A DNA stretch of 64,000 nt from Dehalococcoidia bacterium (GTDB lineage: Bacteria; Chloroflexota; Dehalococcoidia; Lucifugimonadales; Australimonadaceae), in NCBI GenBank assembly GCA_965220225.1, contig OZ244813.1:1891385-1955384 (forward strand), read 5' to 3'. Positions 35,462-64,000 of this stretch are shown here, piece by piece. How positions within the stretch are numbered: the stretch's first letter is position 1; each line of letters starts with the position of its first letter. The notes below the pieces were generated by a model. That model was not told the DNA's origin, made no database searches, and saw only the letters and a program-made list of their open reading frames with translations. A program made the position numbers and the translations under genes.

Positions 35462-35716
35462 CGTCCTCGAGAGCATCCTGTCGAGCTGCAGGTCGACCGC
35501 CATGGTGGTGACCCGAGGCGCACGCCCGACACCGACCCGACTCCATCAACGGGCGGGAGCGGGGGCGTCGACGCTCTCCGGCTGTACGACAGCAACGGCA
35601 ACGGACGCATCACCTGCGCAGAGGCGCGTGAACACGGCATCGCTCCCGTTCACAGGGGACATCCTGCGTACCCCTACATGGACGACAGGGACGGCGATGG
35701 CGTCGTCTGCGAGTGA
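35462..35716 (+). pseudogene. C-terminal Excalibur calcium-binding domain, detached from its upstream part by a frame change
   Basis: ..LRLYDSNGNGRITCAEAREHGIAPVHRGHPAYPYMDDRDGDGVVCE* is a textbook Excalibur motif (..C.eA...G.aPv..g.PgY...mDrDgDGvaCE). This frame has no start codon. A protein-like stretch (EWLPDLNECWFANRVVEVRQQYGL..) sits upstream in another frame. Confidence 0.6.
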
Positions 35717-36205: not shown

Positions 36206-36463
36206 ATGGCTGCCTTCGCGCTGGTGCTCATGTGCATGGCACTTGTGACCTTCTGGATGGCAGCACGCGACGGAGCGAGCATGATCGTGCGGGGCTGGCT
36301 CCTGTTGGTGTCCGGTCTCTTCTAGGGCACGACCGTGGGGTTCGCGGCCAAGGCCGTCAGAGATGAGGTTCAGAAGGCACGTACCAGACGCGAGGCGCGG
36401 CTTCGGCAGGAACGGGAGTGGCGCAAGGGCTTGACCTCGGATGTGCGGGCTGCTATCCACTAG
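36206..36463 (+). pseudogene. small 2-TM protein interrupted by an in-frame TAG inside the second helix
   Basis: MAAFALVLMCMALVTFWMAARDGASMIVRGWLLLVSGLF*GTTVGFAAKAVRDEVQKARTRREARLRQEREWRKGLTSDVRAAIH*. The TAG is at 36323-36325. The C-terminal 22 aa have a paralog at 55651-55717 (minus). Confidence 0.45.
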
Positions 36464-36582
36464 CCATTGCACCCGGCAGTGGGGACGTGCAACTGCCGAG
36501 GGGACACGGCGGCCACGCGGTTTCTCACGTCACCACTGGCCACCCCGCTGCCACTTCATCTGCACCCCATAGGAGAACGATG
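36397..36582 (+). repeat. copy A of a ~190-nt repeated module (gene 3' end + conserved intergenic element + RBS)
   Basis: Aligns with the reverse complement of 55531-55717. Core 36445-36516: GCGGGCTGCTATCCACTAGCCATTGCACCCGGCAGTGGGGACGTGCAACTGCCGAGGGGACACGGCGGCCAC. Confidence 0.8.
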
Positions 36583-36720
36583 ACGGAACGGAAAGCCGAG
36601 ATGCAGGCCGTCCTCGCGGAAATGCAGGCGATGAAGGCCATACTGGCGGAGTTGGAGGCGATTCGCCTGCTCAACGAACGGATACTGAGTGAGTTGCAGC
36701 GCATCGGAGCGGGGCGGTAG
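36580..36720 (+). CDS. 46-aa coiled-coil peptide
   Basis: AGGAG RBS. MTERKAEMQAVLAEMQAMKAILAELEAIRLLNERILSELQRIGAGR. Confidence 0.5.
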   Translation: MTERKAEMQAVLAEMQAMKAILAELEAIRLLNERILSELQRIGAGR

Positions 36721-36733
36721 GCGGAGGGGAACC

Positions 36734-36829
36734 TTGGAAGCAGTACTCCTGCTCGCAGCGACACTGGGCTTCATCGGCATCGGGCTGATAGCCGCAGGGT
36801 ACTGTATCCACACACGCAGACGGAGATAG
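36734..36829 (+). CDS. possible 31-aa single-TM peptide
   Basis: TTG start with GGAGGGG upstream. EAVLLLAATLGFIGIGLIAAGYCIHTRRRR. Confidence 0.3.
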   Translation: MEAVLLLAATLGFIGIGLIAAGYCIHTRRRR

Positions 36830-36879
36830 CCCGTGCATCGCCGCGCATCGTTAACTACCGCAAGGAGGTCATAGTCACC

Positions 36880-37605: not shown

Positions 37606-37615
37606 CCCCCCCCCC
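37606..37615. repeat. C10 homopolymer inside a G5/Cn hairpin
   Basis: GTGCCCCGGGGGCTG-CCCCCCCCCC-GAGGCAC. Confidence 0.9.
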
Positions 37616-38520: not shown

Positions 38521-39957
38521 CTAGTTGACGACGAGTTTGTCGACGCCACTCAGCTTGAGCGCCGCGTCCCGGATCTCGTCGGTGGTGTTCCGGACCTGTT
38601 CGACGATACCGAGGATGTCCTCCGCCCTGCCGTACCCCAACGAGTCGGCGTACCCGGCGATGGCGACCTGTTTCTTGAACTGAGCGTCTTCCATTATCTG
38701 GTCGAACGCCGACTGCCAGTACCGCTTCACGTCGTCTGGCACGCCTGGGGGAAGGAAGAAGACACGCGATATCTCGGCCACGAGCAGATTCAGCTCGAGC
38801 GCTTCGGCCTGCGCCGCGTTGAATGTGAAGCCGGGGAGTTCGCGGTATGAGGGCAGCGGGCCGGTGTGCCCGAGTTCCGCAAGCCATCTGTCGTTGTACG
38901 GCTTCACCTCGTAGAAGACCGGGATGAGGCGCCCGTCCTCTATCCACTCGGGGTAGAGGCGCCCCGCCGTGCCCGGGCTGCACCGGTTCGTGCCGTCCAC
39001 CTCGCCTTGGTCGAACGCCGTCATTATCCCGGTCGTGCCGCCGTAGCCGTAGACCATCTTGAATGGGCCGCCGTTCGCAATCATGAACTCAATGGCGGGC
39101 TCGTTGCCTGGCCCTGCGGAGCCCACCTTGATCGTGAGGTTGTTATCCAGCACCTCCTGCCAGGAGGAGGCGAAGTTCCTGTCCAGGCAGAAGCCGTCCT
39201 CGTTGATGGAGAACGTGGGGGAGCCGAGGATGTGGATGGCGTCGATGTCGAACCCGGTGACGTCGCCCACGTACAACTGCCGCTGGAACCAGCGCGAGTG
39301 CGTCGGGCCGATGGTGTAGCCGTCCGGGTTTGAGTCCACTACCGCCCGCAGGCCACGCAACTGTGCGTCGCCGGGGATGTTCTGCACGATGAAGCGCGTG
39401 CTCTCAGGGAAGTAACGCTCGGCTGCCTCGGCAACCAGCCTGCTGAAGGTGTCGTAACCGCCGCCGGGGCTCGCACCGACGACGATCCTGATCGTCTTGC
39501 GGCCGAAGTACTCCTCCGCGTCGAAAACGGTAGGCATAGGTGTAGCTGTCGGCGTTGGTGTGGACGTGGGTGTAGGCGTCAGCGTAGGTGTAGCGGTCGA
39601 TGTGGGCGTAGGCGTGGGTGTAGCTGCCGGCGTGGGCGTGGACGTGGGTGTGGGCGTCAGCGTAGGCGTAGCGGTCGATGTAGGCGAGGGTGTAGCTGCC
39701 GGCATGGGCGTGGGTGTGGGTGCAGGCGTCAGCGTAGGCGTAGCGGTCGATGTAGGCGTGGGTGTAGCTGCCGGCATGGGCGTGGGTGTGGGTGCAGGCG
39801 TCAGCGTAGGCGTAGCGGTCGATGTAGGCGTGGGTGTAGCTGCCAGCATGTGCGTGGGTGTTGCTGGAGAGCAAGCAGCGAACAGTAGGAGAGTCAGAGC
39901 GAAGAGGAGGATGCCTAAGGTCGGTAAAGGCCATGTCTTGGAATTCGCCATCTTCAC
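38521..39957 (-). CDS. tripartite tricarboxylate transporter substrate-binding protein (TctC/Bug family) lipoprotein with a ~125-aa P/T-rich linker
   Basis: Signal peptide and lipobox (LLLFAAC), a long [23 protein letters not shown]-type repeat, then [21 protein letters not shown]..., typical of Bug/TctC proteins. Confidence 0.85.
39547..39860. repeat. 72-bp tandem repeat (about 4 copies, the last two to three nearly exact) encoding the TctC P/T linker
   Basis: The unit starting TGTAGCTGCCGGCATGGGCGTGGG recurs at 39691, 39763 and 39835. Confidence 0.85.
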
Positions 39958-46440: not shown

Positions 46441-49400
46441 TCACGGGGCCGGTCTCTCTCTGCGGAACAGTTTCCTCCGCAGCAGGAGGAAGAACTCCCC
46501 AAATCGACGGCCAGCGGTCATGGGCTGAGTATGGCTACGTGGCCGCGCGGAATGCCGTCCTCTCCTGCGTCTCTTGCGGAGTTCCTCGATAGAGCTGGCG
46601 ATATCTGCCGCCGCCATCAACCCTGCAACTATGGCCCTGCCCGGCAGAGTCCGAATGACCTTGAGCGATTCGTTGCTCAGTCTCCTCAGGCGTATGCACA
46701 TCCCATGAAGACCTGTGCTCAGAGAGGCTGCGACGCGCTTCAGGTCCACTCCTGACGGCTTCCGCTTCAGCCGCTGATAGCGGTGTGAGCTAGCGTAGCC
46801 GAGTGCACCCGTGCCCATAAGCAGTCCGCCCACCAGCAACAACCCCAACAAACCGTTGCCGCCGCCAGGTATTGCAACGACTGGCACTGGAGCGGGTGGC
46901 GTGGGTGTAGGCGTGGGTGTAAAGGTGGGGGTCGGAACGACCGGGCTCTGCAGAAATGGTGCTGGAACCGGCACAGGGGTAACGGTCGGGGTTGGCGTGT
47001 GCGTGGGCTCAGCAGGTGGCGCAGGGGTAGGGGTAGGGGTGGGAGTTGGTGTATGCGTGGGCTGCGCCGTCAGAGCATGGGTTGGCACTGGTGTCGGCGT
47101 GGGTGTCGGGGTCTTGGTCGGCGCGGGCGTGGGGGTATTGGTCGACGCGGGTGTGGGGGCCCCCGCAGGTACAGGCGTTGGCATCGCCACATCGTCGTCG
47201 CTCACGCGCACGATGATTGATGGACCAGAGGTGACGCCACCGTAGCCACTCACCTGGTGGGTGAGCAGCGTCCGTTCATGCCGAGCATCACTATCGCTGA
47301 CCGCCCTGACCGTGACGTCCCTAGGGGTCCGCCAGTTCGTGCTGGTGAAGGTCAGAGACGCGGGGGAGACTCGCACCGCGCCCGTGTCAGCAGAAGCGGT
47401 TCGCACCGTTGCCGTCCCTCCCGGATCAGTGTTCAACCGCACCGTGTACGTCCCTGTCCTCCCTTCCTCAAGGCCCATGCTGGGCCGGCTGATGACAACG
47501 CCTGGGTCCTCATCGTCGTTCACCCTGACGGACGCAGACGATGGACTTCCAATACCATAGCCGCCTGCCGCCACGATCTGGATGCGCACCGACCCAGGGG
47601 ATTCGTCTATGCTGTCTCCAACCGTATCCACGATGTAGGTGTAGGCCCCGCCTTCAGCAGGAATCCTCACCGTCTTCGCTCCTAGGTCTGCGGGAGCCAC
47701 GACTTCTCCCGTCTGCTCAATCGACAACCTGACGGACAGCGGGCCCACCCGGAGCGGGTTCGCCCTGATCGTGAACAGGGCGGGAGCACCCTCCATGACG
47801 GAGGATTGTGACGCAGTGATGGTGACGACGGGCGTGGGGATTGAACTTCGCGCCCGAGCAAATGTGAGGTCATCGTCGGTGATGGTCACCGTGATGGATC
47901 TCGTCGTGCCCAAACCGTAGACAGGGCTGTCGGTCAGCATCAGGATGATAGTCTCATCGTCGTCGTCGATGTCGTCGTCAATTACCGCAATGGGGATGAC
48001 CACCGACGTATTCCCCGAGCTCACGGCCACGCTGCCCGTGAGTGCCGTGTAGTCATCATCCTGGGTCGCCGTGCCCTGCACCGTGTAGGCCACCGTGATG
48101 TCCGAGGCTGGTGCGGGTGAGACGTTCACCACAACATCGACACTGCGGCTTCCCCACGCCTCGCCTGCGGTGTAAGCGGCCGTGCCGAATGTCACCGTAG
48201 GTGTATCGTCATCTGTGACGGTCGCAGTCACGGAAGCGATATCGATTTCGTCGTAATCAGCGTCCGACGATGCAGCCGAGTGAGTGATGACCGAACTGCG
48301 GCTGGACGGGTTGTCCACCGCATCGTCGACTCCCGTCACCGTCACTGTCTGCGGCTGGTTCCAGTTCCCTCTCGTGAACGTCAACGTCGCAGTGGCGCCA
48401 GCCGTTCCGCCGCTCCCCTCCACCGTGGCAGCGCCAGGCGTCCCCGACGTCACCGTGATCGTCACGTTATGCGTCGGCTCCGTGTCCAGCACCAGCGTGT
48501 AGCTGTCCGTGTCCCCCGCCTCACCCACCGACGTGGAACCATTCGACTCATCGACTGTCACCCCAGCCCCATCGTCGTCCCTCACCGTCGCGGTCACGGA
48601 CCTGATGCTGATGCCCTGGTAGCCGGAGTCCGACGATGCAGCCGAGTGAGTGATGACCGAACTGCGGCTGGACGGGTTGTCCACCGCATCGTCGACTCCC
48701 GTCACCGTCACTGTCTGCGGCTGGTTCCAGTTCCCTCTCGTGAACGTCAACGTCGCAGTGGCGCCAGCCGTTCCGCCGCTCCCCTCCACCGTGGCAGCGC
48801 CAGGCGTCCCCGACGTCACCGTGATCGTCACGTTATGCGTCGGCTCCGTGTCCAGCACCAGCGTGTAGCTGTCCGTGTCCCCCGCCTCACCCACCGACGT
48901 GGAACCATTCGACTCATCGACTGTCACCCCAGCCCCATCGTCGTCCCTCACCGTCGCGGTCACGGACCTGATGCTGATGCCCTGGTAGCCGGAGTCCGAC
49001 GATGCAGCCGAGTGAGTGATGACCGAACTGCGGCTGGACGGGTTGTCCACCGCATCGTCGACTCCCGTCACCGTCACTGTCTGCGGCTGGTTCCAGTTCC
49101 CTCTCGTGAACGTCAACGTCGCAGTGGCGCCAGCCGTTCCGCCGCTCCCCTCCACCGTGGCAGCGCCAGGCGTCCCCGACGTCACCGTGATCGTCACGTT
49201 ATGCGTCGGCTCCGTGTCCAGCACCAGCGTGTAGCTGTCCGTGTCCCCCGCCTCACCCACCGACGTGGAACCATTCGACTCATCGACTGTCACCCCAGCC
49301 CCATCGTCGTCCCTCACCGTCGCGGTCACGGACCTGATGCTGATGCCCTGGTAGGCGGAGTCCGACGATGCAGCCGAGTGAGTGATGACCGAACTGCGGC

Positions 49401-51444
49401 TGGACGGGTTGTCCACCGCATCGTCGACTCCCGTCACCGTCACTGTCTGCGGCTGGTTCCAGTTCCCTCTCGTGAACGTCAACGTCGCAGTGGCGCCAGC
49501 CGTTCCGCCGCTCCCCTCCACCGTGGCAGCGCCAGGCGTCCCCGACGTCACCGTGATCGTCACGTTATGCGTCGGCTCCGTGTCCAGCACCAGCGTGTAG
49601 CTGTCCGTGTCCCCCGCCTCACCCACCGACGTGGAACCATTCGACTCATCGACTGTCACCCCAGCCCCATCGTCGTCCCTCACCGTCGCGGTCACGGACC
49701 TGATGCTGATGCCCTGGTAGCCGGAGTCCGACGATGCAGCCGAGTGAGTGATGACCGAACTGCGGCTGGACGGGTTGTCCACCGCATCGTCGACTCCCGT
49801 CACCGTCACTGTCTGCGGCTGGTTCCAGTTCCCTCTCGTGAACGTCAACGTCGCAGTGGCGCCAGCCGTTCCGCCGCTCCCCTCCACCGTGGCAGCGCCA
49901 GGCGTCCCCGACGTCACCGTGATCGTCACGTTATGCGTCGGCTCCGTGTCCAGCACCAGCGTGTAGCTGTCCGTGTCCCCCGCCTCACCCACCGACGTGG
50001 AACCATTCGACTCATCGACTGTCACCCCAGCCCCATCATCGTCGGTGAGTGTCAACGTCGCGGATGACACGGCCACACCCGACAGAACACCTGACACGGT
50101 GACTGTCTCGTTGTTCAGGTCGATGCTGTCGTCGACAGGCGCCAGCCTGAAGGAGCCGGTCTCCGAAGTCGCTCCGGCAGGAATGGTAATGCTGAACCCG
50201 GCTACGGTTGCAAAGCCCACGACATTCGCTCCACCGGACCCAGCAACAGAGATTGCCACCTGCTGTGCAGTTCCGAACCGCGTGGCCCCGCCCACGGTGG
50301 CGGTCACCTGCACTGTGGTCGCGCCAGCATCTTCTGCGACGGTTGTCGGTTGAACGCTCAGCGAGACGGCCGAAGGTGCTGCATCGTTATCCATAATGTC
50401 GACCGCTGCGGCCTTGGGGCTCCCCACGAGATACTCAGATCCATCGTTCACCGTCACCGAGAGCGCCCCATCACGCCTGTCGATGTGGTCATCCTCTGTG
50501 GGCACGGAGTAAGTCGCACTGCCAGACGTGGGAACCGAGACTGTCTGGCTGCCCTCGTAACCTTGAGATACGTAGTCGCCTTCGCCTTCCGAAACCGTCA
50601 GACCCACCGTAAGGGCGGATGACGGTGAGGGAGCCGCCGTGACTGTGAACCGCGCTGTGCCGCCCTCAGTCACGGAAGACGAGCCTGCAGTGATGCTGAT
50701 GCGCGGCGAGGGGATGGGCGTTGCAGGCGCTTCGGGTGGGGCTCCCCTGAGTACATCTACGGATGCGTTCAGCCCTTCACCGCTCACTATGACTTTAGCT
50801 ATTTCTCCTAAGTCTCGCCATCTGTATTTTTCGTTGCGGGTGTTACAGAGGTTCGCCAGACCGGGGACGACCCGAGGGTCCTTGTCGTCAGGATCGATGT
50901 AATAGTTCGGGTCAGGTTCACCCTCGTCAGGGCAAGAGATGGAGTTCTTGAATATCACATTCCTGGTAGAGATGCGAAACTCCTGCGATGCATTGCCTGC
51001 CGGAATCGTCCACGTATGCCTCCCCTCCTTGTACGTCGGTGTGCACGGCAGGTCGCTTTCTACTTCAGACGACTTCAGGACCCTACTGTCTCCGCTTTGA
51101 TATTTCACCTTGTCTTTGGCTTCATAGTACGGAGGGAGTACCTCGCAGAGAACGATGTAATGGCTATCGACACTGACAGGGATGTCCAGGTCGGTTGTCT
51201 GCACCGGGGTCACATGGAGCGTGAATACAGCGTCATGGGTTTCATAAGTCTGCGATTCGGCTGTGATGGTGATTACAGGCGAGTCTCCCTGCTGCGCGTT
51301 GGCAATGGAGGGCTGAGGCACGAAGGTAATGATGGCCATTAGCGCAGCAGCCAGCATGGCAACAGCGAACGGCAAGAGATTGTTATGCAGGGGAGAGGCC
51401 ATGCCTCCAGCAGAACGAGGGAATCCTGATCGCTTCTGATTCAT
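46441..51444 (-). CDS. giant (1667 aa) Calx-beta / cadherin-like repeat surface protein with P/T linker and C-terminal TM anchor
   Basis: Signal peptide (..[22 protein letters not shown]). Multiple beta-sandwich repeats with G-T-A-x-x-x-D-Y...F..g.....i.i.v.DD..dE motifs. Five 122-aa near-identical repeats. P/T-rich region, then [20 protein letters not shown] + RYQRLKRK. Confidence 0.9.
48236..50056. repeat. five tandem copies of a 366-bp unit (122 aa), nearly identical at the nucleotide level
   Basis: The track shows five identical 72-aa antisense ORFs starting at 48284, 48650, 49016, 49382 and 49748 (366-nt spacing). In the sense protein the only internal difference I can see is SGYQG versus SAYQG (GTAGCC versus GTAGGC at ~49361), plus a divergent tail in the C-terminal copy. 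Confidence 0.95.
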
Positions 51445-51705: not shown

Positions 51706-52674
51706 CTACTGTCCGTTGCTTCCTCGGTCGCCTGCATTGCTCCTGAAGGGAGGTAGCCCTTGTCTGTGTCGAATCCCTAGGGTGAGGCCAGCGGCTACCA
51801 CTACACCAACCAGAACCAGGAAGAACAGAACACTTAACCAACCAGGAGGCCCCCCTTCGTCCAGGGTGACTGGCGGAATCACGGGGATGGGCGTCGGCGT
51901 AGCCGTAGGCCTCGCAGTCGGTGTAGCTGTAGGCCTCGCAGTCGGTGTAGCTGTAGGCCTCGCGGTCGGTGTAGCCGTAGCCCTCGCAGTCGGCGTAGCC
52001 GTAGGCCTCGCAGTCGGCGTAGCCGTAGGCCTCGCAGTTGGCGTAGCCGTAGGCCTCGCAGTCGGCGCAGCCGTAGGCTTCGCAGTCGGTGCTGCCGTGG
52101 GCTTCGCAGTGGGTGCTGCCGTGGGCTCCGCAGTGGGTGCTGCCGTGGGCTCCGCAGTGGGTGCTGCCGTGGGCTCCGCAGTGGGTGCTGCCGTGGGCTC
52201 CGCAGTGGGTGCTGCCGTGGGCTCCGCGGTTGCCGCAGGAGACCTGCGAATGTTGACGGTCGAATCGCCGCCAATCGCAACATCCTGCCTGTAGGCATCC
52301 AGTAGTGAACCCGTAAACCGGTAGGTTCCCTCCGATTGAGCGGCCCTAACGGTATAACTGATCGTGCGGTCTCCGCTCAGCAAGGTGAAGATCAGTCGCT
52401 GGCCATCCACCTCCCCCTCCGGGGTACCAGACACGTACTCGAATCCATCCGGCAGATTCTCTCTGACCTGCGCGAACGAAGAAAACGAGGCCGTGACTGT
52501 AACCGTCAATGTGCCCCCAGGCACTACCGTGGCAGGGGATATCTGCCTTGTGGCACTCGGAGTTTGCGCTTGCGCATGCAACGAACTGAGACTCAGTAGT
52601 CCCACCAAAAGAATCACGGCTCCCGACGCCGCCACGAATGCGAGTGACCTGCTGAACAAATGCCTCATCTCCAT
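51706..52674 (-). CDS. secreted surface protein: Ig-like/DUF11-like domain + octapeptide P/T/A repeats + C-terminal TM anchor
   Basis: Start at ATG 52674 ([36 protein letters not shown], signal peptide). ..[28 protein letters not shown].. About 17 repeats of [16 protein letters not shown]. Then [24 protein letters not shown] + RHRQ. Confidence 0.75.
51888..52232. repeat. 24-bp tandem repeat array (octapeptide P/T/A repeats)
   Basis: GTAGCCGTAGGCCTCGCAGTCGGC-type units repeat head to tail. Two sub-families occur (..GCCTCGCAGTCGG.. and ..GCTCCGCAGTGGG..). Confidence 0.9.
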
Positions 52675-52715: not shown

Positions 52716-55266
52716 TCAGTTCCCTGCGTCCTGGAAGTGACGTTCCATGAGTTGTATGACTACTGCCCTATCGCTCGGTTGCAGCCCCCCGTTGAAGTAG
52801 GCGTTGATGGCTCGAACAACCTCAGTTCTGTCGATCTTGCCGTTGCGGTTGTCGTCCCACTCATCCAAGAGGGCATCTCCAGCGGACGTGTCGTCTATAT
52901 CGGTGACGGTGACAATCACGGCCCGCACAGCTGGGTCGTTCTGTCCGTCATTCGCAGTCACTGTCACGTGATAGACGTTGTCTCCGGCCGCACTCCCTTG
53001 TGCTTCGTAGTCAGGAGGCGCCTTGAAGGTGAGCACGCCTCCAGAGGAGATGGTGAACTTTCCGGAATCAACCCCGGCAAGGGACCATCGCGCCATTGTT
53101 GCCAGGGGCCCCACTGCCCTGTAGGTCGTGACCGGAGCTGAGCCATTCTCGGCATATCGCAGGCTGTTCGGACCTACCACGGCCAGCCCTCCCCTTCGGA
53201 TCATTGGGGTTTCTTGTAGATCGGTGACCCTGATGGTCACGTTCGCGGTCGCACTCGCTCCGTCCGGGTCCGTCGCCTTCACACGGACCACGTAACTGCT
53301 CTTCGTCTCGTAGTCCAACGTCGTCCCAGCCTTCACCGAGAGCTGCCCACTCGGACGATCAATAGTGAACAAGGCCGCATCACCGCTCAACTCATACGTC
53401 AGTGGCCTTCCCTCGGGATCCGTGGCGGCGACGGCATCACCTAAGGCAGTGACCGACGTGAACTCCTGTTCCGCCTGCTCAATCACCTTGATGCTCTCGT
53501 CTGGGTCCGTGTGCGGGTCGTCGAACCACGGCGGCCTGTTCGAGTCGTCCACAGCACTTGAGGACACTGCAGATGCGCTCTTCCCCGGACCCTGACGGTC
53601 CGTGTACATCGCCGTCGCGCGCAGGTACTTGGCCGCGTCCGCGTGAACCGGGGTGTAGGCAGCAGACGTTGCACCGCCGATGACCATGACGTTGTCACCG
53701 CCGCCGAAGCCAGCGTTATCTGCCCTCTCCCACTTCCAGGTGACCCGTGAGGGCGTTCCGTCCTGATCCCCCGTGAGCGTAGCCGTCAACGCAACGCCGA
53801 CCTTCGGCACCAGCGTCGACAGGCTCACCTCCCCAGGCTCATCCACGTTCGTCACCATCACCGCCACGTTCAGGACGTCGGTCATTCCGGCGCTGTCCCG
53901 CGCCGTCACCGTCACGTTGTACGTGTTGTTCCTGCCCGCATCCGCAGGTGACTCGTAGTCAGGCACCGCCTTGAAGGCAAGCTCCCACGTGCCGTTGGTG
54001 TCGCTGTCAGTCAGCGTGAATGCACCCGCATCAGCTCCAGACAGTTCCACTCTAACGGGTGTGCTGGCGGCGTCATCTTCATCGTCAGTCACCGTGTACG
54101 TGGCAACCGCAGTTGTTATGGCGGTGTTCTCTGCGTATGACACGGATACCTCACCGCTCAACTCAGGCGCCTCCGGCACGTCTGTCACCGCGATGCTCAC
54201 GTCAATGGAGTCGGAATAAGCCCCCGAGTTATCCGAACCGGTGAAATTGCCGTCCGCCACTGTGACGGTGACTTCGTAGGAGGGTTCATCTTCGGTGTTC
54301 AGCACGGTGCCGGCGCCCACCCTGATCTGGCCGTTCGAGTCGATCGTGAACTTGTCAGCGTCCTCCCCCCCCCCCCAGCGTGAACGTCAGCACATCACCC
54401 TCAGGGTTGCTGGCCCTGAGGGGCGTACCTACCGATGTGCCTGCTGGCGAGTTTTCTCGGACCTCTCGATCGATAGAGGCAGCCGTGACTGCATTTCCAT
54501 CGCTATCCACGATCACCGGGGCGGCGTTCGAGGCTCGGCCTGCCAACACCTTCACATCCGACACAACCAACTCTTGTTTTCCAGAGCCTGCGGGGTCGGT
54601 GTAGGTCACCGTCACACGCAGGTAGCGCCCTATGTCCGTCGGATCCGGGATGTACTTGGCCGCCCGGGAACCGTTGGTGTCAGTCGCCTCTATTCCGACG
54701 AACGAACCTGACTGGCTAGAGCCCCGCGCCCACTGCCACCGCTCATCTGAGACATCACCGTCAACGTCGGTGAGCGTAGCTGTCAATGCAACCCCCACAA
54801 CCGGCTGGCGATTCGACAGCGTCAACGTTGCGGGCTCATCCTCGTTCGTGACCTTCACGACGATGGGGTAGCGGCCCTGACCGCCGGCACTGTCTGTGGC
54901 CACCACTTCCAATCTATACGTATTCGCAGCATCGTCCGAGCCGCCACTCTTCGCATCTTCATAGTCGGGAGACTCCTTGAAGGCAAGCACGCCTCTTTGG
55001 GAGATGTCGAAGTATCCAGCATCCTCACCCTGCACCGACCAAGTCAGCGCTCTCCCCGCCTTGTCGTCTTCATCGTCCGTAGCCGTGAACGTAGCCACTG
55101 GGCTGTCCACCGGCGTGTGCTCGGCATACTCGATGGTCTCGGGTGACTGGGCGTAGAGGAACGCGACGGGGAGCAACCAGAAGCCGAGCGCCAGAGATAC
55201 GATCAACGCCAGCACGGGCAGTAAGACGTTCCGTCGAGAGAGGGAGCGATTCAACTCTTGTCGCAT
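52716..55266 (-). pseudogene. cadherin-repeat surface protein with C-terminal EF-hand/dockerin-like motif, split by a frameshift in a G12 tract (possibly phase-variable rather than dead)
   Basis: Track ORFs 54355..55353 and 52716..54320 are two halves. The upstream half has RBS GAGGAAG, ATG 55266 and a signal anchor, and ends ..VLTFTLGGGGGR*. One G fewer gives ..TFTLGGGEDADKFTIDSNGQIRVGAGTVLNTEDEPSYEVTVTVADG.., a canonical cadherin repeat. 2551 nt minus 1 is 850 codons. The C-terminus has DEWDDNRNGKIDRTEVV. Confidence 0.8.
54365..54376. repeat. C12 (G12 on the coding strand) homopolymer inside the cadherin gene
   Basis: TCCT-CCCCCCCCCCCC-AGCG read directly from the sequence. Confidence 0.95.
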
Positions 55267-55530: not shown

Positions 55531-55717
55531 GCAAGGGTTCTCCTACGGAATGGATGAGTGGGCAGTGGAGTGACCATCGGGCCTTAGGAGAACCCTTGTG
55601 GCCGCTGTGTCCCCTCGGCATTGCACATCCCCCACTGCCGGTGCAACGGGCTAGTGAATAGCAGCCGCAGCCTCCGGGGTCAAGTCCTTGCGCCACTCCC
55701 GTTCCTCCTGAAGCCGT
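55531..55717 (-). repeat. copy B of the ~190-nt repeated module
   Basis: The reverse complement of 55598-55668 reads GCGGCTGCTATTCACTAGCCCGTTGCACCGGCAGTGGGGGATGTGCAATGCCGAGGGGACACAGCGGCCAC. Flanks also align, including ..GGAACGGGAGTGGCGCAAGG.CTTGACC.. and ..TAGGAGAAC. Confidence 0.8.
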
Positions 55718-55840
55718 GCCCCGTGCCCGGAACGTGTTACCTTCGGGTGTAGCCGACGCCGTGCTGCACGCGGCGAACATCGCAGTTGGCAGCAGAAGGG
55801 AGGACAGGCGAACCGCCATAGCTGCATCGTATCGGGTCAT
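55651..55840 (-). pseudogene. frameshifted small lipoprotein-like gene whose C-terminus is paralogous to 36206-36463
   Basis: MTRYDAAMAVRLSSLLLPTAMFAAC (lipobox) STASATPEGN.., then a frame change, then ARLQEEREWRKDLTPEAAAAIH* (compare ARLRQEREWRKGLTSDVRAAIH*). 190 nt is 3n+1. The 172-aa track ORF 55322..55840 is a read-through composite. Confidence 0.45.
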
Positions 55841-56741: not shown

Positions 56742-56783
56742 GAGAGACGCCCTGCCGGGACAAATCCCGGCAGGGCGTCTCTC
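56742..56783. terminator. 19-bp perfect GC-rich hairpin (bidirectional terminator-like)
   Basis: GAGAGACGCCCTGCCGGGA-CAAA-TCCCGGCAGGGCGTCTCTC. Confidence 0.5.
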
Positions 56784-56832
56784 TATCTCCATGGTGGAAC
56801 CCGATTGGGTGCAGGTTCTGCCGGAGCCTAGC

Positions 56833-56841
56833 GGGGGGGGG
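56833..56841. repeat. G9 homopolymer with the same flanks as the G12 tract at 63830
   Basis: CCTAGC-GGGGGGGGG-TAGGTC versus TTAGC-GGGGGGGGGGGG-TAGTGG. Confidence 0.9.
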
Positions 56842-57968
56842 TAGGTCAACAACCCTGACCACGCGTACCCGCCTTGGTCTGCACACGGATACCCCACCTC
56901 CATCCTTGACTCGGAGAAATCAGCGTGCGACTGCCACCTGGTGCTCTGCTCCATGAAGGAGAATGTGCAGCAGACCCATCTGCTCGGCGGGTGGTGAACA
57001 GGAAGAACAGCAGGCCGGGGGCCGGCTGCCCCCCCCGGCCTTCCATCGCATACGCACCGCGTGCTCACCCGCACTCTTCGGGCTAGCCCCTGCTAGGGGA
57101 GCTCGGCCGCATCCTTGAATTAGCCGCTTGGGGAAGTCCTCTGGGAAGAAGGAGGGATTGACATGATGGACCCACTGCCGACGCAGTCACGGTGTCCTAT
57201 CCACTGGTACCCAGACGACGATCATGCTGTCCCAGCCGATGTGCGTGCCCTAGCCTCCGAGGAACACGCGTGGCGAGATTCACGGTGACGAGCATCGCAC
57301 CGCCGTTGAGTCATTCGCCTTTCCGCCACTGCTGGAACTGCTTCGGGCCCACGCCGATGCAGCACACCACATCCTCGCGGGATGCTATTCGCGGCGAACG
57401 TCGGACCGCAGGGACAGCACTACAGACTGACTCACGAGGATGCAGGCCGAGCGCTCAGCGTTCAGGTCGACGTCTACGGCGGTGACCAATCCTCTTCGAA
57501 CAGGCCCACGGGAGACGAGAGCACCGCTTCATAGGCGGCTACCTTCCGCTCCCGGGCAGTCGAGTAGGCAGCATCCGCGTTGACGATAGCTTCCGGGTCG
57601 CCGGAGTCCTTTGCAGGTCCGAGCTCCTCTCCATCCCCAAGGTCGACCCCCGCTTCGCCGGATCGCCTCTCGTCGTTCACTACTGCGACCTCCTCCCACA
57701 CTACGACTCCAATCGAGACCTGCGTCGCTATGTGCCGCAAGGCTGCAGGGAAGCTGCATGCCACAAGGCGCCAAGTTCTAGGCGTTCACCTATGGCGACG
57801 TCTGTGTGAATCCCCGCGCTGTGAATCTCGCAACAGCGGAGGATGGTGACGCATTACTGTTCACCGCAAGGATGCTGCACTGGATGAGTGGCAAGCCGAG
57901 CAGGGGACATGGCTTCGCCAAAATGGACGGCCTGAGCTTATCTCTGCCCCGGTTCCAAGTTCCGCCTC

Positions 57969-60900
57969 CTAGCGCGAGCGAGCGTAGATGTAGACCGCTA
58001 CCGCGATGAGCGCGATGACGAGCAGCGCGACCGCCCATACCCAGGCGGGCACGCCGCCGCCATCGCCTGGTTCCACCGGTGGAGGAGCGGGCGTCATCGT
58101 GGGCTCCGGAACAGGCGTGGTCGTCGGTTGGGGAGTGGGCGTGGCGGCGGGTTGCAGTGTGGGCGTGGCCGTGGGTTGCGGCGTGGGCGTGGCCGTGGGC
58201 TCCGGAACAGGCGTGGTCGTCGGTTGGAGAGTGGGCGTGGCCGTGGGTTGCGGCGTGGGCGTGGCCGTGGGTTGCGGCGTGGGCGTGGCCGTGGGTTGCG
58301 GCGTGGGCGTGGCCGTGGGTTGCGGCGTGGGCGTGGCCGTGGGTTGCGGCGTAGGCGTTCCCGTGGGCTGCGGCGTAGGCGTTCCCGTGGGCTGCTGGGG
58401 GGCGGTGACGGTGACGATTACGGTGATGTCGTCCGAGTCATATTCGCTGTCGCGCACGAGCACGACCAAGCGGTACGTGCCCTGCTCCTCGTGATCGAGC
58501 GCGATACGCGTGCGGATCTGACCCGTGTCCGCGTCGACCGAGAACGCCTTGCGCGCTGCGCTGTCGCCGCTGACCGTCCACACGAGGCGGGTGGAGTCTC
58601 TGTCCCTGACGCGCAGCGGACCGCCAACCGACGCACCGGGCTCGAGGCCCGACGCGACCGTCCGCGTCGTCTCGCGCCCCTCCAAGAACACCGGCGGTGC
58701 GTTGGACGACGCGGTGGAGGCGCGACCGCCTCCGCCGCTGCCACTGCCACTACCGGCACTGGTCGGGGGTGGGTCGTTATCGCGCACCGCTACCGCCGCC
58801 GTTGCCGATGCCGGTGAGCCGAGGGTGTAGCCGCTGCCAGCATTCAGCGTCACCCTCACCGAGCCGTTCGACTCGTCTGCGCTATCGTTCACCGTCGGGA
58901 TGGTGAACGTCGTACTGCGCCCACTGAGGCTGCGTGTCTTGCCGCTGCCGAGCTCCCCTGAGGCCACGAACCGCCCGCTCTGCGTCACCGTGTAGCGCAC
59001 GGTGATGCCCCCGCCCGGCACGGGGTTCGACGAGACGGTGAAGGAAGCGCTGCCGCCCTCCGTCACAGCGGAGCCGCCGCGGATGGTCAGCACCGGGACT
59101 CCCGCCGTATCGTTGTCCGTGATCGTCAGCGTGTGAACACGCGTTGCCCCCCGGTTGTATCCCTGACCGCTGGCCAAGGTCAGTACCACCGTCTCCGCGC
59201 TCTCCGCCGCGCCGTCGTCGGTGATGGCGACGGGGATGGTGGCAGTGCCGGAGGTGCCCACCTGTATGGTCCCGGTGTTGCTCGTCACGCCGCTGATGGT
59301 GTAATCCGTGCCCCGAGTCGCCGTGCCGGAGATCGCGTAACTCACTGTGACCGTGGCCGTTGGGGTCGGGTTCAGGTTCAACGTGACGTTGCGCGTTCCC
59401 GCGCTCTCCGCAGCGCTCGATGCGGACCGCGCGAAGTTCGCCACAGGCGTCCCCGTCCCGTCGTTGTCGGTGACTGTCAGCGTGTGGACACGTGTCGTTC
59501 CAAGCGCGTAGCCCGTGCCGGTGTTCAGGGTCAGAATCACCGTCTCCGAGCTCTCCGCGGTGTTGTCGTCGGTTATGGCGACGGGGATATCGACGAAGGT
59601 GGCCCCCCCGATAACGCTAGCCGTGCCGCTGTTGCTGGTCACCCCGCTGATGCCGTAGTCCGTCCCCCGCACCGCCGTGCCGGAAAGCGTGTAGTTGACC
59701 GTGATGTTCTGGTATGGCGTGGGGCTGAGGTTGACACGGACGTTACGCGTCCCCCCGCCCTCGGCGAAGGTGCCCGCGCCCGACGCGAACTGCGCCGTCG
59801 GCACATCGTTGTCGTTCACCGTCACCGTTGCCGACGACGGCGAGCCAATGGTGTATCCCGTGCCGTTGTTCAGCGCGACCGTCACCGAGCCGTTCGCCTC
59901 GTCCAAGTTATCGTTCAGCGTCGGAATCGTGAACGTCGTGTTGCTTGCGCTGATGGGGCGCGACTTGTTGCTGCCGAGTTGCCCGGAGGCCACGAACTGC
60001 CCGTTCTGCGAGACCGTATAGCGCACAGTGATGCTCCCGCTCGGCGCGGGGTTCGACGAGATGGTGAACGAGGCGTTGTTGCCCTCGGTCACGGCGGAGC
60101 CGCCGGCGATGGTCAGCACTGGTGTCCCGCCGCCCCCGTCGCTGGCGCTGATGGTGCGCGTGTGGATGAGCGGCTCGTTGCGCGCGTATTGCGTGCTGCT
60201 GAGGATCGTCACGATGATGGTCTCCGCGCCCTCCCCCGCGCTGTCGTCGATGATGGCGATGGGGATGTTGACGGAGGTGGTGCCCGCGCTGACGGTCATC
60301 GTGCGGCTGGTGCCGGTCCCGCCGCTGACGGTGTAGTCCGTGCCGAGGGTCGCCGTGCCGGACAGCTCGTACTTCAGCGTGATGTTGCCGGATGGCGCGG
60401 GGTTGAAGTTCAGCACCAGGTCCGTCGAGCCCGAGTTCTCGCTCACGGTCGATGTCGCCGCAGCGAAGGAGACCTGCGGCGTGACCGGCTGATCGTCGTC
60501 ATTGATGGACACGGTGGCCGAGGCACTCGTCATCGACGGCGTATAGCCCGTGCCCGTATCGACGGTCACTGTCACGGAGCCGTTCGCCTCATCGACGTTG
60601 TCGTCCCCCGTGGAGACGGTGATGGACGCGCTTCCGGTCGTCGGGATGGCGACCGTGCGTGAACCGGGAGTTACGCCGAAGTCGCCCGTCTGTGTCACGC
60701 TCAGGTTCACTGTGATGGTCGCACTCGGCGCGGGGCTGGCAGTGACGGTGAACGTGGCGTTGTTGCCCTCCGTGACCGCCCCCGCGTCCGCAGTGATGGA
60801 GACTGTGGGGGTGGCAGCGGGGGTCTCCGCCTGGAAGATCTGCGAGATGCCCAGGATGCGGCGGGAGCCGACCTTACCCTCGGCAGCCTGGCTGACGGGG

Positions 60901-63797
60901 TTGTTGCTCGCGCCCCACTGACCCAGACGGACATTCGCCCCGGAGTGCCCCAGTGGATCGGTCGAGGCGGTTCCGGCCGTGGCGTGGGTCGTGCCCGTCT
61001 GTGTGCCGGTCCATGTCTTCACTGCGCTGGCCACAGCCTGCCCGTCGGTCCCACGCGTATCGTTAGCCAACTGAGCGTCCCAGGTGCCGTCCCAGAAGTC
61101 GTTGTGGTCGTCGGCGATCTTGCCGCCCCCCAGCCAGTGGATGGGCGTCGTCCATGCCGTGTGGCCATATGTGCTGTCGCTGCTCTGGAGGATACCCGTC
61201 GCGGTGTGGAAGGCGGCGTCCACTGCCTCCGTGCTTCCCACCATCCGGAACGTCGAAGAGTAGTCCTGAATGGCTGCGTGTGGCGTTGGCGTCGTGCCCG
61301 ATGCGGACGCGTCCGACTGCACCCACGCGTCGTAGGTGGCGATGTCTGCGTTCTCGGCATTCCGTGCGTCGCCGAGGAAGACGAGGCGGAACTGCTGGCC
61401 CGCCGTGATGCCGACGGGAGTTAGTGCCCAGTCGTTTGGAACGACGTTCACGTCGACGATCTGCACTGTCACAGATCCGGTGTCCGGGTCCGGGGCGTAG
61501 CCGGAAGGCACAGACGTCACGGTCAGCGTGAACGCCTCTGCCCCCTCGATTTTGGTGTCCGCGGGGATGCTCAGGTCGAATGTGGCGGAGGTCTGTCCGG
61601 CCGGTATGGTCAGGTTCCACGGGCCGCCGGTCCAATCGTCGGGAGTGGCGGTCCCCGCCGTCGCGGTGACCGTAACGGTGATGTCGGAGAGCTGCGCCTC
61701 CGAGATGACCACGGGGATCGACAACGTCGTGCCTTCGCGGATGTTGTAGCCGTCCTCGCGCTCGAAGCCGAAAGTCGGCACCGGCTCCACCTCGAACACC
61801 GTCGAGAGGCCATAGAGGCGCCCTTGAGCGTTGCGCTGAGTGGCTCCATGGGAGATCGGATCGCCGCCGGAGAGGATGCCCCTGATCACGTATCTGTTAC
61901 CGACGCTGTATCTGCCCAGGGTGTTGCGACCTGTATCTTTCGTGCCGTCGGGTTCACTGCCGGTCAGGACATCGTTGTTGCTGCCTTGCTTGTCTCCGTG
62001 TTCCGTTTTGTAGTTCCCGGCTGTCCACGTGTTGTCGCTGTCGTTGTCAACATGGAGGAAGTGGTGGTAGTTGTTGGCGATCTTGTCGCCGTTGATCCAG
62101 TAGATAGGGATGCCGGACGAGCTGTTGCCGGTTGAGTCGTCGGTGTAGGCGTTCGTGTCCGCGTCCCACAGGCCGGTGTTCAACCGCGCGTCGATATCTC
62201 CGGTAGAGGCGAAGACGCCGAAGAGCTTGCTGTACGCCCGGATGTCGCTGTGCCCGTTCGCCGCCGCGTCCCGCACGAAGGCGTTGAAGACATCAATGCT
62301 ATCGTCATCGGCAGTCCGCGTATTCTTGGTCACGAACAGCAGGCGGAACCGGTCGCCGATGTTCAAGCCCTCCGGACGCAGCGGCCAATCGTAGGGAACG
62401 AGGGTAAGGGGGATGACGTTGTTGATATCCACCGTGACGGTCGCGGCGCTCGGGTCCACTAAGTAGCCCGACGGGACCGACGTGAAGGTCAGCGTGAACC
62501 GCTCCATCGTCTCGTGGAGGCTGCTGTCACCGGCTATCTCTATGTCGAATGACACGGACGTCTGGCCGCTCGCTAGCGTGACGGTCCAGGGGCCGCCGGA
62601 CCAGTCATCGGCGTCGGCTGTGTCCGGCGTGGCGGTGATTGTGATGGTCACGTCGGACGTATGCGCCTCCGAGGCCGTTAGCGACACCGTCAGCGTCTCA
62701 CCTTCGTCGAGGGTGAAGCTGGTCGTATCGAAGCTGAGCGTCTTCGCGGCAACCTCGAACACGCCGGACAGGCCGATGTACACGTTGTCGCTGCCCACCG
62801 GGATGTCGCCCTGGTTGATGGGGTTCTGGCCCCCGGTACCGCCCCAGCGGGTATGGGTGCCGGAAGTACCCAACTGCTTGCCGGATATCGCGACACCGGC
62901 GTTCGAGTGCTGGTTGCCGGTCGAGGTGCCGGTGTTGGGGCCTCTCGTATTGGTGGAAGCGTTGCCGTTGGCATTGCGCATATGGGCATCGTTGTTGTTG
63001 TCCCAAGTGCCGTCGTAGAAGTCGTTGTAGTCGTCGGCGATCTTCGGGCCGTTCAGCCAGTAGATCTTGTGCGACAAATCCGTGTGGCTGGGCTCACCGC
63101 TCACCATGATGCCGGTGGCGGTGTGCCAGGCGGCGTCGACGGCGGGAGTGCTGCCCACCACCCGGAAGGTCGGCGCGTACTGACGGATGTCGGTGTGGCC
63201 GGTGCTCGAGCCGCTGATGCGGTTGCGCACGAAGGTGTCGTAGTCGCCGATATTGGCGGAGTTGGCATCGCGCTCAGTTTCGGTCTTGAACAGCAGCCGG
63301 AACTGCTCGCCGGGGTTCACATCGCTGGGTATGAGACTCCAGTTCTCGGGCACGATGCTCACGTTCACGACCTGGACGCTGGCCGAGCTGTTCGTGCCCA
63401 ACGCGAAACCGGACGGCGGGGAGTCTATGGTGATGGTGAGCGTCTCGTAGTCCTCGATATGACTGTCTGCAAGGATGGGGATGTTGCAGACGTGGGCATT
63501 TCGGCCGGAAGGAACGGTGCAGGTGTGCGGACCTGCGGCGAAGTCCGTGCCCGCCGTAGCCGTGCCCGCAGTGGTGGTGATGGAGAACGTCGCTTGGGAT
63601 GAGGTTGCTATGCTGAAAGTCAGTGTCGGTGAAAGGTTCCTGCCTTCGAGCACGTTGTAATCGGCACGCTCGAACTGGACGGTAATGGTGGACTGTGCGC
63701 TGGACTCAGGCGCGGGGAGCCCCCACAACAGAAGCGCCGCCAGCGCGGCAATCAGCGCGGGCGTCAGTAGCCTGCGCATCATTGCCACGGCGCTCAT
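57969..63797 (-). CDS. giant (1942 aa) surface protein: three [beta-sandwich + ~210-aa uncharacterised module] units, ~9 Calx-beta domains, one cadherin-like domain, P/T octapeptide repeats and a C-terminal TM anchor
   Basis: Signal peptide [34 protein letters not shown]. Calx-beta motifs such as [12 protein letters not shown]...[21 protein letters not shown]. Cadherin-like NAPPVFLEG...[21 protein letters not shown]. (TPTPQPTA)n. Then [30 protein letters not shown]. Confidence 0.9.
58100..58395. repeat. 24-bp tandem repeat array encoding (TPTPQPTA)n
   Basis: GGCGTGGGCGTGGCCGTGGGTTGC repeats head to tail about 12 times with minor variants. Confidence 0.9.
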
Positions 63798-63829
63798 GCT
63801 ACGCGCCTCGGTGTGTTTGTGAAATTAGC

Positions 63830-63841
63830 GGGGGGGGGGGG
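63830..63841. repeat. G12 (C12 on the gene strand) homopolymer 33-44 nt upstream of the 1942-aa gene start
   Basis: Gene-strand context: CTTACATACCACTA-CCCCCCCCCCCC-GCTAATTTCACAAACACACCGAGGCGCGTAGC-ATG. Confidence 0.95.
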
Positions 63842-64000
63842 TAGTGGTATGTAAGGGGTGGAATCAGGCGTGGCTAACGCATGGGAAGGCGCACGGGAGT
63901 CCTGCATCTTGGTGATGTCAAAACCCCGATGCTGGAGGCTCCCATGCTCCTCCCGAGGGAATGCTGTCAGGTTCAGAAGATCAACTCCCAAGGCAACCGG

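Follow-up and report, generated by a model that had tools for sequence, protein, structure and literature searches.

The described loci that come closest to the one considered here are the poly-G/C contingency genes of Campylobacter jejuni, in which an intragenic tract in a surface-related gene sets expression ON or OFF according to its length modulo 3 (PMC8355987, PMC3025981). For tracts of G8 to G11 in this species, switching rates per division range from 1e-4 to 1.6e-3, insertions being favoured at G8 and deletions at G11 or longer (PMC8355987). Comparable loci in Neisseria and Haemophilus include poly-G in pilC, poly-C in the opc and porA promoters, and the lgt genes (PMC5084427, PMC5320596). 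Here we report a G12 homopolymer that divides a cadherin-repeat adhesin gene on the minus strand of a 64,000-nucleotide (nt) stretch of DNA, referred to below as the window, from a Dehalococcoidia bacterium (contig OZ244813.1, positions 1,891,385 to 1,955,384). We give an even chance to the reading that the G12 is real and arose by slipped-strand mutation of a hypermutable homopolymer, and that the surface adhesin gene has the character of a contingency locus, in the OFF state in this consensus.

The locus shares with the Campylobacter genes an intragenic tract in a surface-related gene whose reading frame depends on tract length; there, too, several tracts are clustered, both within genes and upstream of them, and their lengths differ among populations. 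It differs in that the Campylobacter lengths are spread over G9 and G10, whereas here the common allele, known from consensus assemblies, is a stable G8. Moreover, C. jejuni is a pathogen, whereas the window comes from an uncultured, apparently symbiotic member of the Chloroflexota. In Neisseria and Haemophilus the intragenic tracts likewise lead to translational ON/OFF switching and the promoter-proximal ones modulate transcription. A second tract in the window, C12, situated 33 nt upstream of a giant surface-protein gene, resembles the latter by position; unlike them, it is not accompanied by a plausible -35/-10 spacer pair, and a promoter role for it is speculation. Homopolymer length also varies beside an adhesin gene at the poly-C tract of the Bordetella fim promoter. 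The simple sequence repeat (SSR) contingency loci of Bartonella are alike in that SSR or homopolymer variation is found at large repetitive adhesin genes of host-associated bacteria (PMC11466379). The products in these two genera are trimeric autotransporters and fimbriae with experimental support, whereas ours would be an N-terminally anchored protein of the cadherin/Calx-beta kind, known from sequence.

Cadherin domains of the same class are among the "eukaryote-like proteins" enriched in the microbiomes of Ircinia sponges, in a literature which does not describe homopolymer-mediated variation of such genes (PMC9531527). The presumed role of these cadherin-type proteins is in the recognition of symbiont and sponge host. 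Within the literature searched, we found no report that links phase variation and homopolymeric tracts with Chloroflexi, and for sponge symbionts only an unrelated Bacteroides study. The mechanism we propose is a known one, the simple-sequence contingency locus, in an unusual lineage. A homopolymer switch in a gene of this type is a hypothesis that can be tested on existing read sets, and it would carry contingency-locus biology from pathogens to Chloroflexota.

Structure of the divided gene

An earlier reading of the window, made from its letters without database searches (the sequence-only reading), had claimed that a G12 tract splits a cadherin-repeat adhesin gene. On the minus strand, positions 54380–54355 read ACG CTG GGG GGG GGG GGA GGA CGC TGA; the tract has exactly 12 G, and two open reading frames (ORFs) abut there, as claimed. 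The features are as follows.

54365..54376, minus strand: G12 homopolymer (C12 on the plus strand) within the cadherin-repeat gene, at codon 297 of 848, the cause of the frameshift
54355..55266, minus strand: 5' fragment (P0121) of 303 amino acids (aa) with ATG at 55266, ending in the residues TLGGGGGR, with the stop 5 codons past the tract
52716..54320, minus strand: 3' fragment in another frame, an ORF of 534 aa (the 529-aa P0004 in the public annotation), with more cadherin and immunoglobulin-like (Ig-like) domains

P0121 comprises an N-terminal signal or transmembrane (TM) anchor, the first cadherin domain (Pfam Cadherin, residues 45–132, E=4.6e-8, 33.8 bits) and an Ig-like domain (SCAB-Ig-like, residues 167–223). 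The 3' fragment P0004 has no signal peptide of its own and carries a C-terminal EF-hand-like Ca-binding loop which scores below the Pfam threshold.

The G-run was edited in silico. Tracts of G8, G11 and G14 gave a single ORF of 848, 849 and 850 aa, respectively, ending at the stop at 52716, whereas G10, G12 and G13 gave a truncated one. The prediction that one G fewer would yield an uninterrupted ORF of 849 aa was thus borne out, and the arithmetic offered with it (a span from 55266 to 52716 of 2551 nt, or 3 x 850 + 1) is right. When the rebuilt G11/G14 ORF is begun at GTG 55353 instead of ATG 55266, its length is 878 aa instead of 849. The rebuilt protein matches Pfam Cadherin (PF00028) over four stretches with E=1.6e-35 and 121.8 bits, well above the gathering score of 28.8 which qualifies it as a cadherin-domain protein, and in addition has Ig-like domains. 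At the rebuilt junction the family motif LTFTLGG(G)EDADKFTIDSNGQI, present in all homologues, is regained. The tract falls in a loop in which homologues differ in length by one residue (YTL-SGDDA, YTLGDGADEA, YTLSGGDDV), so that the Gly-Gly of the G8 form and the Gly-Gly-Gly of the G11 form would each be compatible with the family. From its hydrophobic anchor, its cadherin stretches and the surface proteins encoded around it, we infer that the gene product is a surface-exposed cadherin-repeat protein.

Tract alleles in other populations

Both fragments are present in the public protein collection and originate from one 2.94-Mb contig. The 90% cluster which holds them has a third member, P0122, an intact protein of 848 aa encoded on Logan contig L002; the claim that an in-frame tract gives an intact gene therefore has a natural example. 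At the DNA level L002 and the window share 99.3% identity, with G8 versus G12 as the only indel within the gene. Its tract stands in the context ACGCTG-G8-AGGACGCTGAC, translated as TLGGEDADKF. G8 with identical flanks was found in L002 (2276–2283), L009 (12995–13002) and L017 (917–924). The scaffold L009/L020 is identical to L002 over the overlap and possibly derives from the same sample; L017 is from a different sample and represents a 96%-identical, structurally different allele, which still has G8.

These conspecific contigs, 96–99.9% identical to the window in DNA, are labelled KELL22-1_SAMN222373xx and are joined by Logan assemblies of SRR1635169x. Kelly et al. 2022 sequenced Ircinia sponge metagenomes on the NovaSeq platform (2x150; BioProject PRJNA768976; PMC9531527), and judging from the label and the accession range the contigs apparently come from these metagenomes and hence from Illumina reads. 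The difference between G8 and G12 amounts to a real length change of 3–4 nt, which a consensus miscount of +/-1 cannot explain. The slipped-strand proposal of the sequence-only reading gains from this a genuine slippage hotspot with G8 and G12 alleles; it erred in the natural intact allele, which has four G fewer, not one. The sequencing error which it named as the competing explanation is ruled out as a pure artefact for the bulk of the length difference and survives in the form of an error of +/-1 (true G11).

Three further searches for alleles were made. A scan of JGI metagenomes with the variable-gap pattern ACGTTCACGCT N6-20 AGGACGCTGAC returned two unrelated chance matches and no further alleles. 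A short-query protein search around the tract for fragmentary conspecific alleles gave distant proteins only, partial proteins at contig ends seemingly being unindexed, and exact look-up of the public C-terminal fragment P0004 had no contig on record.

Four of the features that define an SSR contingency locus are present, namely a homopolymer of at least about 8–9 inside an ORF (G12 at codon 297/848), a change of tract length that toggles the frame between full-length and truncated products, a tract length that is polymorphic among related populations (G12 versus G8), and a product that is probably surface-exposed. The decisive mark of such a locus would be frequent and reversible switching within a clonal population, with mixed tract lengths in reads or colonies.

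Length variation of G/C runs

The conspecific contigs were compared with the window over positions 35705–64000 (about 28 kb), and all indels were listed. In this region every G/C run of at least 9, four in all, has another length in the conspecific alleles, and the differences go in both directions.

54365, minus strand: the adhesin tract, 12 in the window versus 8 in conspecific alleles
63830..63841, minus strand: C12, the second 12-mer, 33 nt upstream of the ATG at 63797 and outside the ORF, in the promoter or 5' untranslated region; 12 versus 11
56833..56841, minus strand: C9, intergenic, 262 nt upstream of a PNPOx-family gene; 9 versus 7+A (C7+A in L009, L010 and L013)
37606..37615, minus strand: G10, non-coding, in an arm of a GC hairpin (free energy, dG, -32.3 kcal/mol, z -2.5); 10 versus 12 (G12 in L021, 14587–14598)
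57029..57036, minus strand: G8, in an arm of a GC hairpin, of the same length in all alleles and serving as a control for 8-mer stability

The four runs of 7–8 (57029, 38503, 44088 and 59603) are identical in the conspecific alleles. Such a dependence on length is the pattern expected if the runs change by slipped-strand mutation. Apart from the cadherin tract, which is the sole uncompensated frameshift in genes over this region, intragenic indels are either in-frame changes of 6 or 12 nt or compensated +1/-1 pairs, and the other single-base indels are intergenic. The compensated pairs stand a few codons apart (47755/47744, 50733/50729 and 61421/61413) in two giant surface-protein genes and are seen against all conspecific alleles. 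They bear the signature of real evolution under selection, in which a frame-shifted patch has been restored; random sequencing errors would not leave such a signature. Long-read homopolymer error on a wide scale was considered for the window and rejected, since the other genes compared with the conspecific alleles carry no frameshift.

Runs of 12 are rare in this DNA, which has a G+C content of 64%. Two G12/C12 runs were observed, against a mean of 0.04 per window in dinucleotide-preserving shuffles, in agreement with the earlier estimate of well under one. Counts fall about 4-fold per added base, with 12 runs of 6 and 2 of 7 for each of G and C; the distribution essentially ends at 7, which places a 12-mer far outside it. 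The window holds five tracts of 8 or more, compared with about four overlapping 8-mer matches expected by chance, which is no clear enrichment. Three of the four runs of at least 9 fall in a 17-kb surface-protein cluster, within the 64 kb examined of a 2.94-Mb genome.

Proposed switch and alternative explanations

We propose that the common and ancestral allele was the intact G8 (CTG GGG GGG GAG, read as L-G-G-E) and that the tract grew by 4 bases in the sequenced population. Translation of the G12 form would halt 5 codons past the tract and leave a 303-aa membrane-anchored stub devoid of the C-terminal two thirds. A G12 tract would slip very often, and ON cells with G11 or G14, having one or two extra Gly in the variable loop, would arise continually. 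The gene would then behave as a mutational ON/OFF locus of the phase-variable, contingency type. Switching of this kind may be reversible within the population and may be put to adaptive use.

Several observations weigh against this proposal. At least two independent samples, among them the one with the 96%-identical allele, have kept the G8, and the tract is stable at that length. About four overlapping G8 matches per window are expected by chance and GGG is reasonably common, accounting for 23% of the Gly codons; the tract thus offers no evidence for selection of mutability, and a G8 of stable length need not have been selected for it. The island in which the gene lies is structurally plastic (800-bp and 1.4-kb indels, gene fusions, truncations), which makes the simple loss of a dispensable gene plausible. 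Finally, homopolymer length is the main residual error in HiFi data (PMC7545148), and among the closest relatives, which are metagenome-assembled genomes (MAGs), one has a contig named as long-read assemblers name theirs (ctg17276_38x_l), so that an off-by-one count is possible if the window assembly is long-read.

The last point leads to the alternative that survives best, although we consider it unlikely, namely that the consensus is miscounted by one. The true tract would be G11 (or G14), the gene would be intact with an extra glycine, and the frameshift would exist in the assembly only. The metaMDBG assembler works on homopolymer-compressed reads, and run lengths do not return until a racon-like polish (PMC11392814). 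In such a MAG a second long coding tract, the C19 of contig L003, is likewise exactly one base from being in frame, and the G11 loop length matches that of homologues. An off-by-one position is not diagnostic, however, since a random length has a two-in-three chance of being out of frame. The lack of any other uncompensated coding homopolymer indel over about 28 kb, against alleles that are apparently from Illumina data, argues for an accurate consensus, and the fact that long tracts differ both ways (10 versus 12 at 37606) argues against systematic over-calling of long runs in the window. The 4-nt difference lies beyond error and attests to real multi-base variation, which makes a true G12 a priori as likely as G11. 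Even if the count were wrong, the tract would in reality have expanded by 3 nt (or 6 nt) over G8 and would remain hypermutable. Genes split at long homopolymers in long-read MAGs should be neither "repaired" nor dismissed automatically; with independent short-read assemblies for comparison, real variation can be separated from miscounts.

A recent one-way pseudogene is a doubtful alternative. A dispensable adhesin would have been killed by slippage at an ordinary G8, after which the tract drifted to 12 with no regulatory role. The sequence downstream of the tract bears on this. Compared with L002, the window is identical over the 890 nt that precede the tract and shows 15 differences over the 1649 nt that follow it, with 8 non-synonymous and 5 synonymous codon changes. 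The imbalance between the two sides was considered as a sign of decay and rejected, as both lineages contribute to it and the clustering of changes fits a recombination mosaic. When derived changes downstream are polarised with L017, 2 non-synonymous and 3 synonymous changes fall to the window lineage; the intact L002 lineage has about 5 and 1, respectively, and these are tightly clustered, as is typical of recombination patches. The 551 downstream codons contain no stop. Neither further lesions nor relaxed constraint, as expected of a decaying pseudogene past its first lesion, were found, and the accumulating downstream mutations which the sequence-only reading had associated with a dead gene are not in evidence. 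The absence of a stop and of an excess of derived non-synonymous changes indicates that the frameshift is recent, reversible or artefactual and not an old lesion.

The pseudogene explanation draws on the plasticity of the island (the 800-bp indel, the ROK-gene indel, the fusion or truncation in L017 and the varied sizes of the neighbours), on the conservation, and hence stability, of G8 in other populations, and on the passage from 8 to 12, whose several steps include OFF states and would be easiest were these tolerated. The undamaged downstream codons mean that any inactivation was very recent, and a G12 tract by its nature reverts at high frequency. The independent long tracts in a sister orthologue and upstream of a neighbouring adhesin gene also speak against it, suggesting a recurring pattern and not an accident.

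Long homopolymers promote transcriptional slippage, which is exploited by insertion sequence elements, and in endosymbionts frameshifted genes are reportedly rescued by such slippage at poly(A) tracts (Tamas et al. 2008); documented bacterial slippage of this type is, however, mostly at A/T runs. That the G12 allele is expressed at full length by RNA-polymerase slippage or +1 ribosomal frameshifting, as the 0-frame stop just 5 codons past the tract might suggest, is very improbable, as there is no stimulatory RNA structure around the tract (dG -12.6 kcal/mol, z +1.3), a canonical +1 shift site would have its stop directly next to the slippery run, which is not the case here, and the conserved state elsewhere is simply in frame (G8), so that recoding is not ancestral.

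Orthologues in sister species

The nearest other genomes are OY764542 and OZ242348, chromosome-scale entries named "MAG: Dehalococcoidia bacterium", in which the protein is 70% identical and the gene is twice as long through tandem duplication of its architecture. A scan of genome contigs, in a set that does not include the window's own genome, returned relatives at no more than 70% identity, all of them Dehalococcoidia MAGs. The site homologous to the window tract has no G run in either of the 70%-identity relatives (CTGAGCGGCGATGAC), while all conspecific alleles have one, at a stable 8.

Long tracts occur instead at the start of the sister gene. The OZ242348 orthologue begins ATGAGACGTA-C9-GTC… (MRRTPPPRQRN…) and is in frame, with the tract at L001 10011–10019 occupying codons 4–6. 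OY764542 has C19 at the same site (L003 3912–3930); a tract of 17 or 20 C would be needed to bring the upstream ATG into frame, and the public annotation of OY764542 places the protein start downstream of the C19 tract. The occurrence of tracts at different sites in related lineages implies that long G/C homopolymers arose separately in this gene, with very different lengths.

With the poly-C upstream of the giant gene added to the intragenic adhesin tracts, internal poly-G in this species and 5' poly-C in the sister species, we tentatively entertain the idea of a contingency system of several genes, made up of long G/C runs, in a Dehalococcoidia sponge symbiont, by which eukaryote-like surface proteins would be varied stochastically in the host; we regard it as unlikely on present evidence. 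If true, it would be the first SSR phase variation described in Chloroflexota or in sponge symbionts, and the variation could serve escape from sponge phagocytosis or from phages.

Two smaller differences were seen in these relatives. A further 1-nt indel is located 12 nt downstream of the sister-species poly-C tract. OY764542 also has a G12 (L003 8406–8417) directly past the adhesin stop, in the ribosome-binding region of a downstream signal-peptide gene; at this site OZ242348 (L001 14449–14460) reads GGGGGGGCGGAG, which is of the same length and two substitutions apart.

The surface-protein island

The split adhesin gene lies within a cluster of surface-protein genes on the same strand, the following of which are its neighbours.

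57969..63797, minus strand: giant surface protein of 1942 aa with six Calx-beta stretches and a cadherin domain, downstream of the C12 tract
51706..52674, minus strand: Pro/Thr-repeat surface protein with signal peptide and C-terminal TM segment (PF04886 PT repeat, E=1.2e-19), 42 nt past the adhesin stop
46441..51444, same strand as the adhesin: Calx-beta protein of 1667 aa with five 366-bp repeats

The allele of the giant gene on the conspecific contig L010 has C11 (844–854) at the second 12-mer, together with a single-nucleotide polymorphism 4 nt upstream, and the 1942-aa ORF is intact in both this allele and the window. A sigma-70 scan around the C12 at 63830 gave a sole match, at a position overlapping the ATG, and around the tract itself no -35/-10 pair with a usable spacer. 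It is speculative to regard this C12 as an analogue of the in-ORF tract that would act at the level of transcription through promoter spacing. From its spacing, the Pro/Thr-repeat gene is probably co-transcribed with the adhesin gene.

The repeats of the 1667-aa Calx-beta gene are arranged in tandem at 48186–50043, five copies of 366 bp (122 aa) that are 93–98% identical. In conspecific assemblies the corresponding proteins have 596–1299 aa, which reflects either real copy-number variation or collapse of repeats in short-read assembly. In L017 the adhesin is fused or truncated, and the neighbouring repeat proteins differ in size among strains. Pro/Thr-rich linkers (PTPTPT/PTAEPTAA) followed by a C-terminal TM segment were found at 38521–39957, 46441–46900 and 51706–52300, apparently a common anchoring design.

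Two segments of the conspecific contigs are missing from the window. The first, of 800 bp (L002 479–1278; also in L009, L011 and L012), is absent at about 55374, 108 nt upstream of the adhesin ATG. This repeated element carries a small coiled-coil ORF as well as a PIN-like remnant, and part of it is 85% similar to window positions 36571–36832; in addition, window positions 55537–55736 are 80% similar to 36378–36578 in inverted orientation. The second is a 1.4-kb segment with a ROK-family gene (L009/L010 7541–8957), absent at about 57614 between the giant and the PNPOx-family genes. An Rfam scan of the window detected two tRNAs only.

The GC hairpins at 37606–37615 and 57029–57036 are alike, with the form G(n)-CAGCC..-CCCCCGG, and may be terminator-like or similar to repetitive extragenic palindromic (REP) elements. 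The intergenic runs at 56829–56844 and 63826–63844 share their flanks, TAGC-G(n)-TAG on the plus strand, which corresponds to CTA-C(n)-GCTA upstream of the minus-strand genes. A TAnnnT hexamer starts 2 nt past both intergenic tracts on the minus strand, either by coincidence or as a shared regulatory or insertion motif. Lastly, a hairpin with a perfect 19-bp stem is located at 56742–56783 (dG -49 kcal/mol, z -6.7). Its 4-nt loop is TTTG in the window and the reverse complement CAAA in L009, L010, L013 and L016, a "loop flip".

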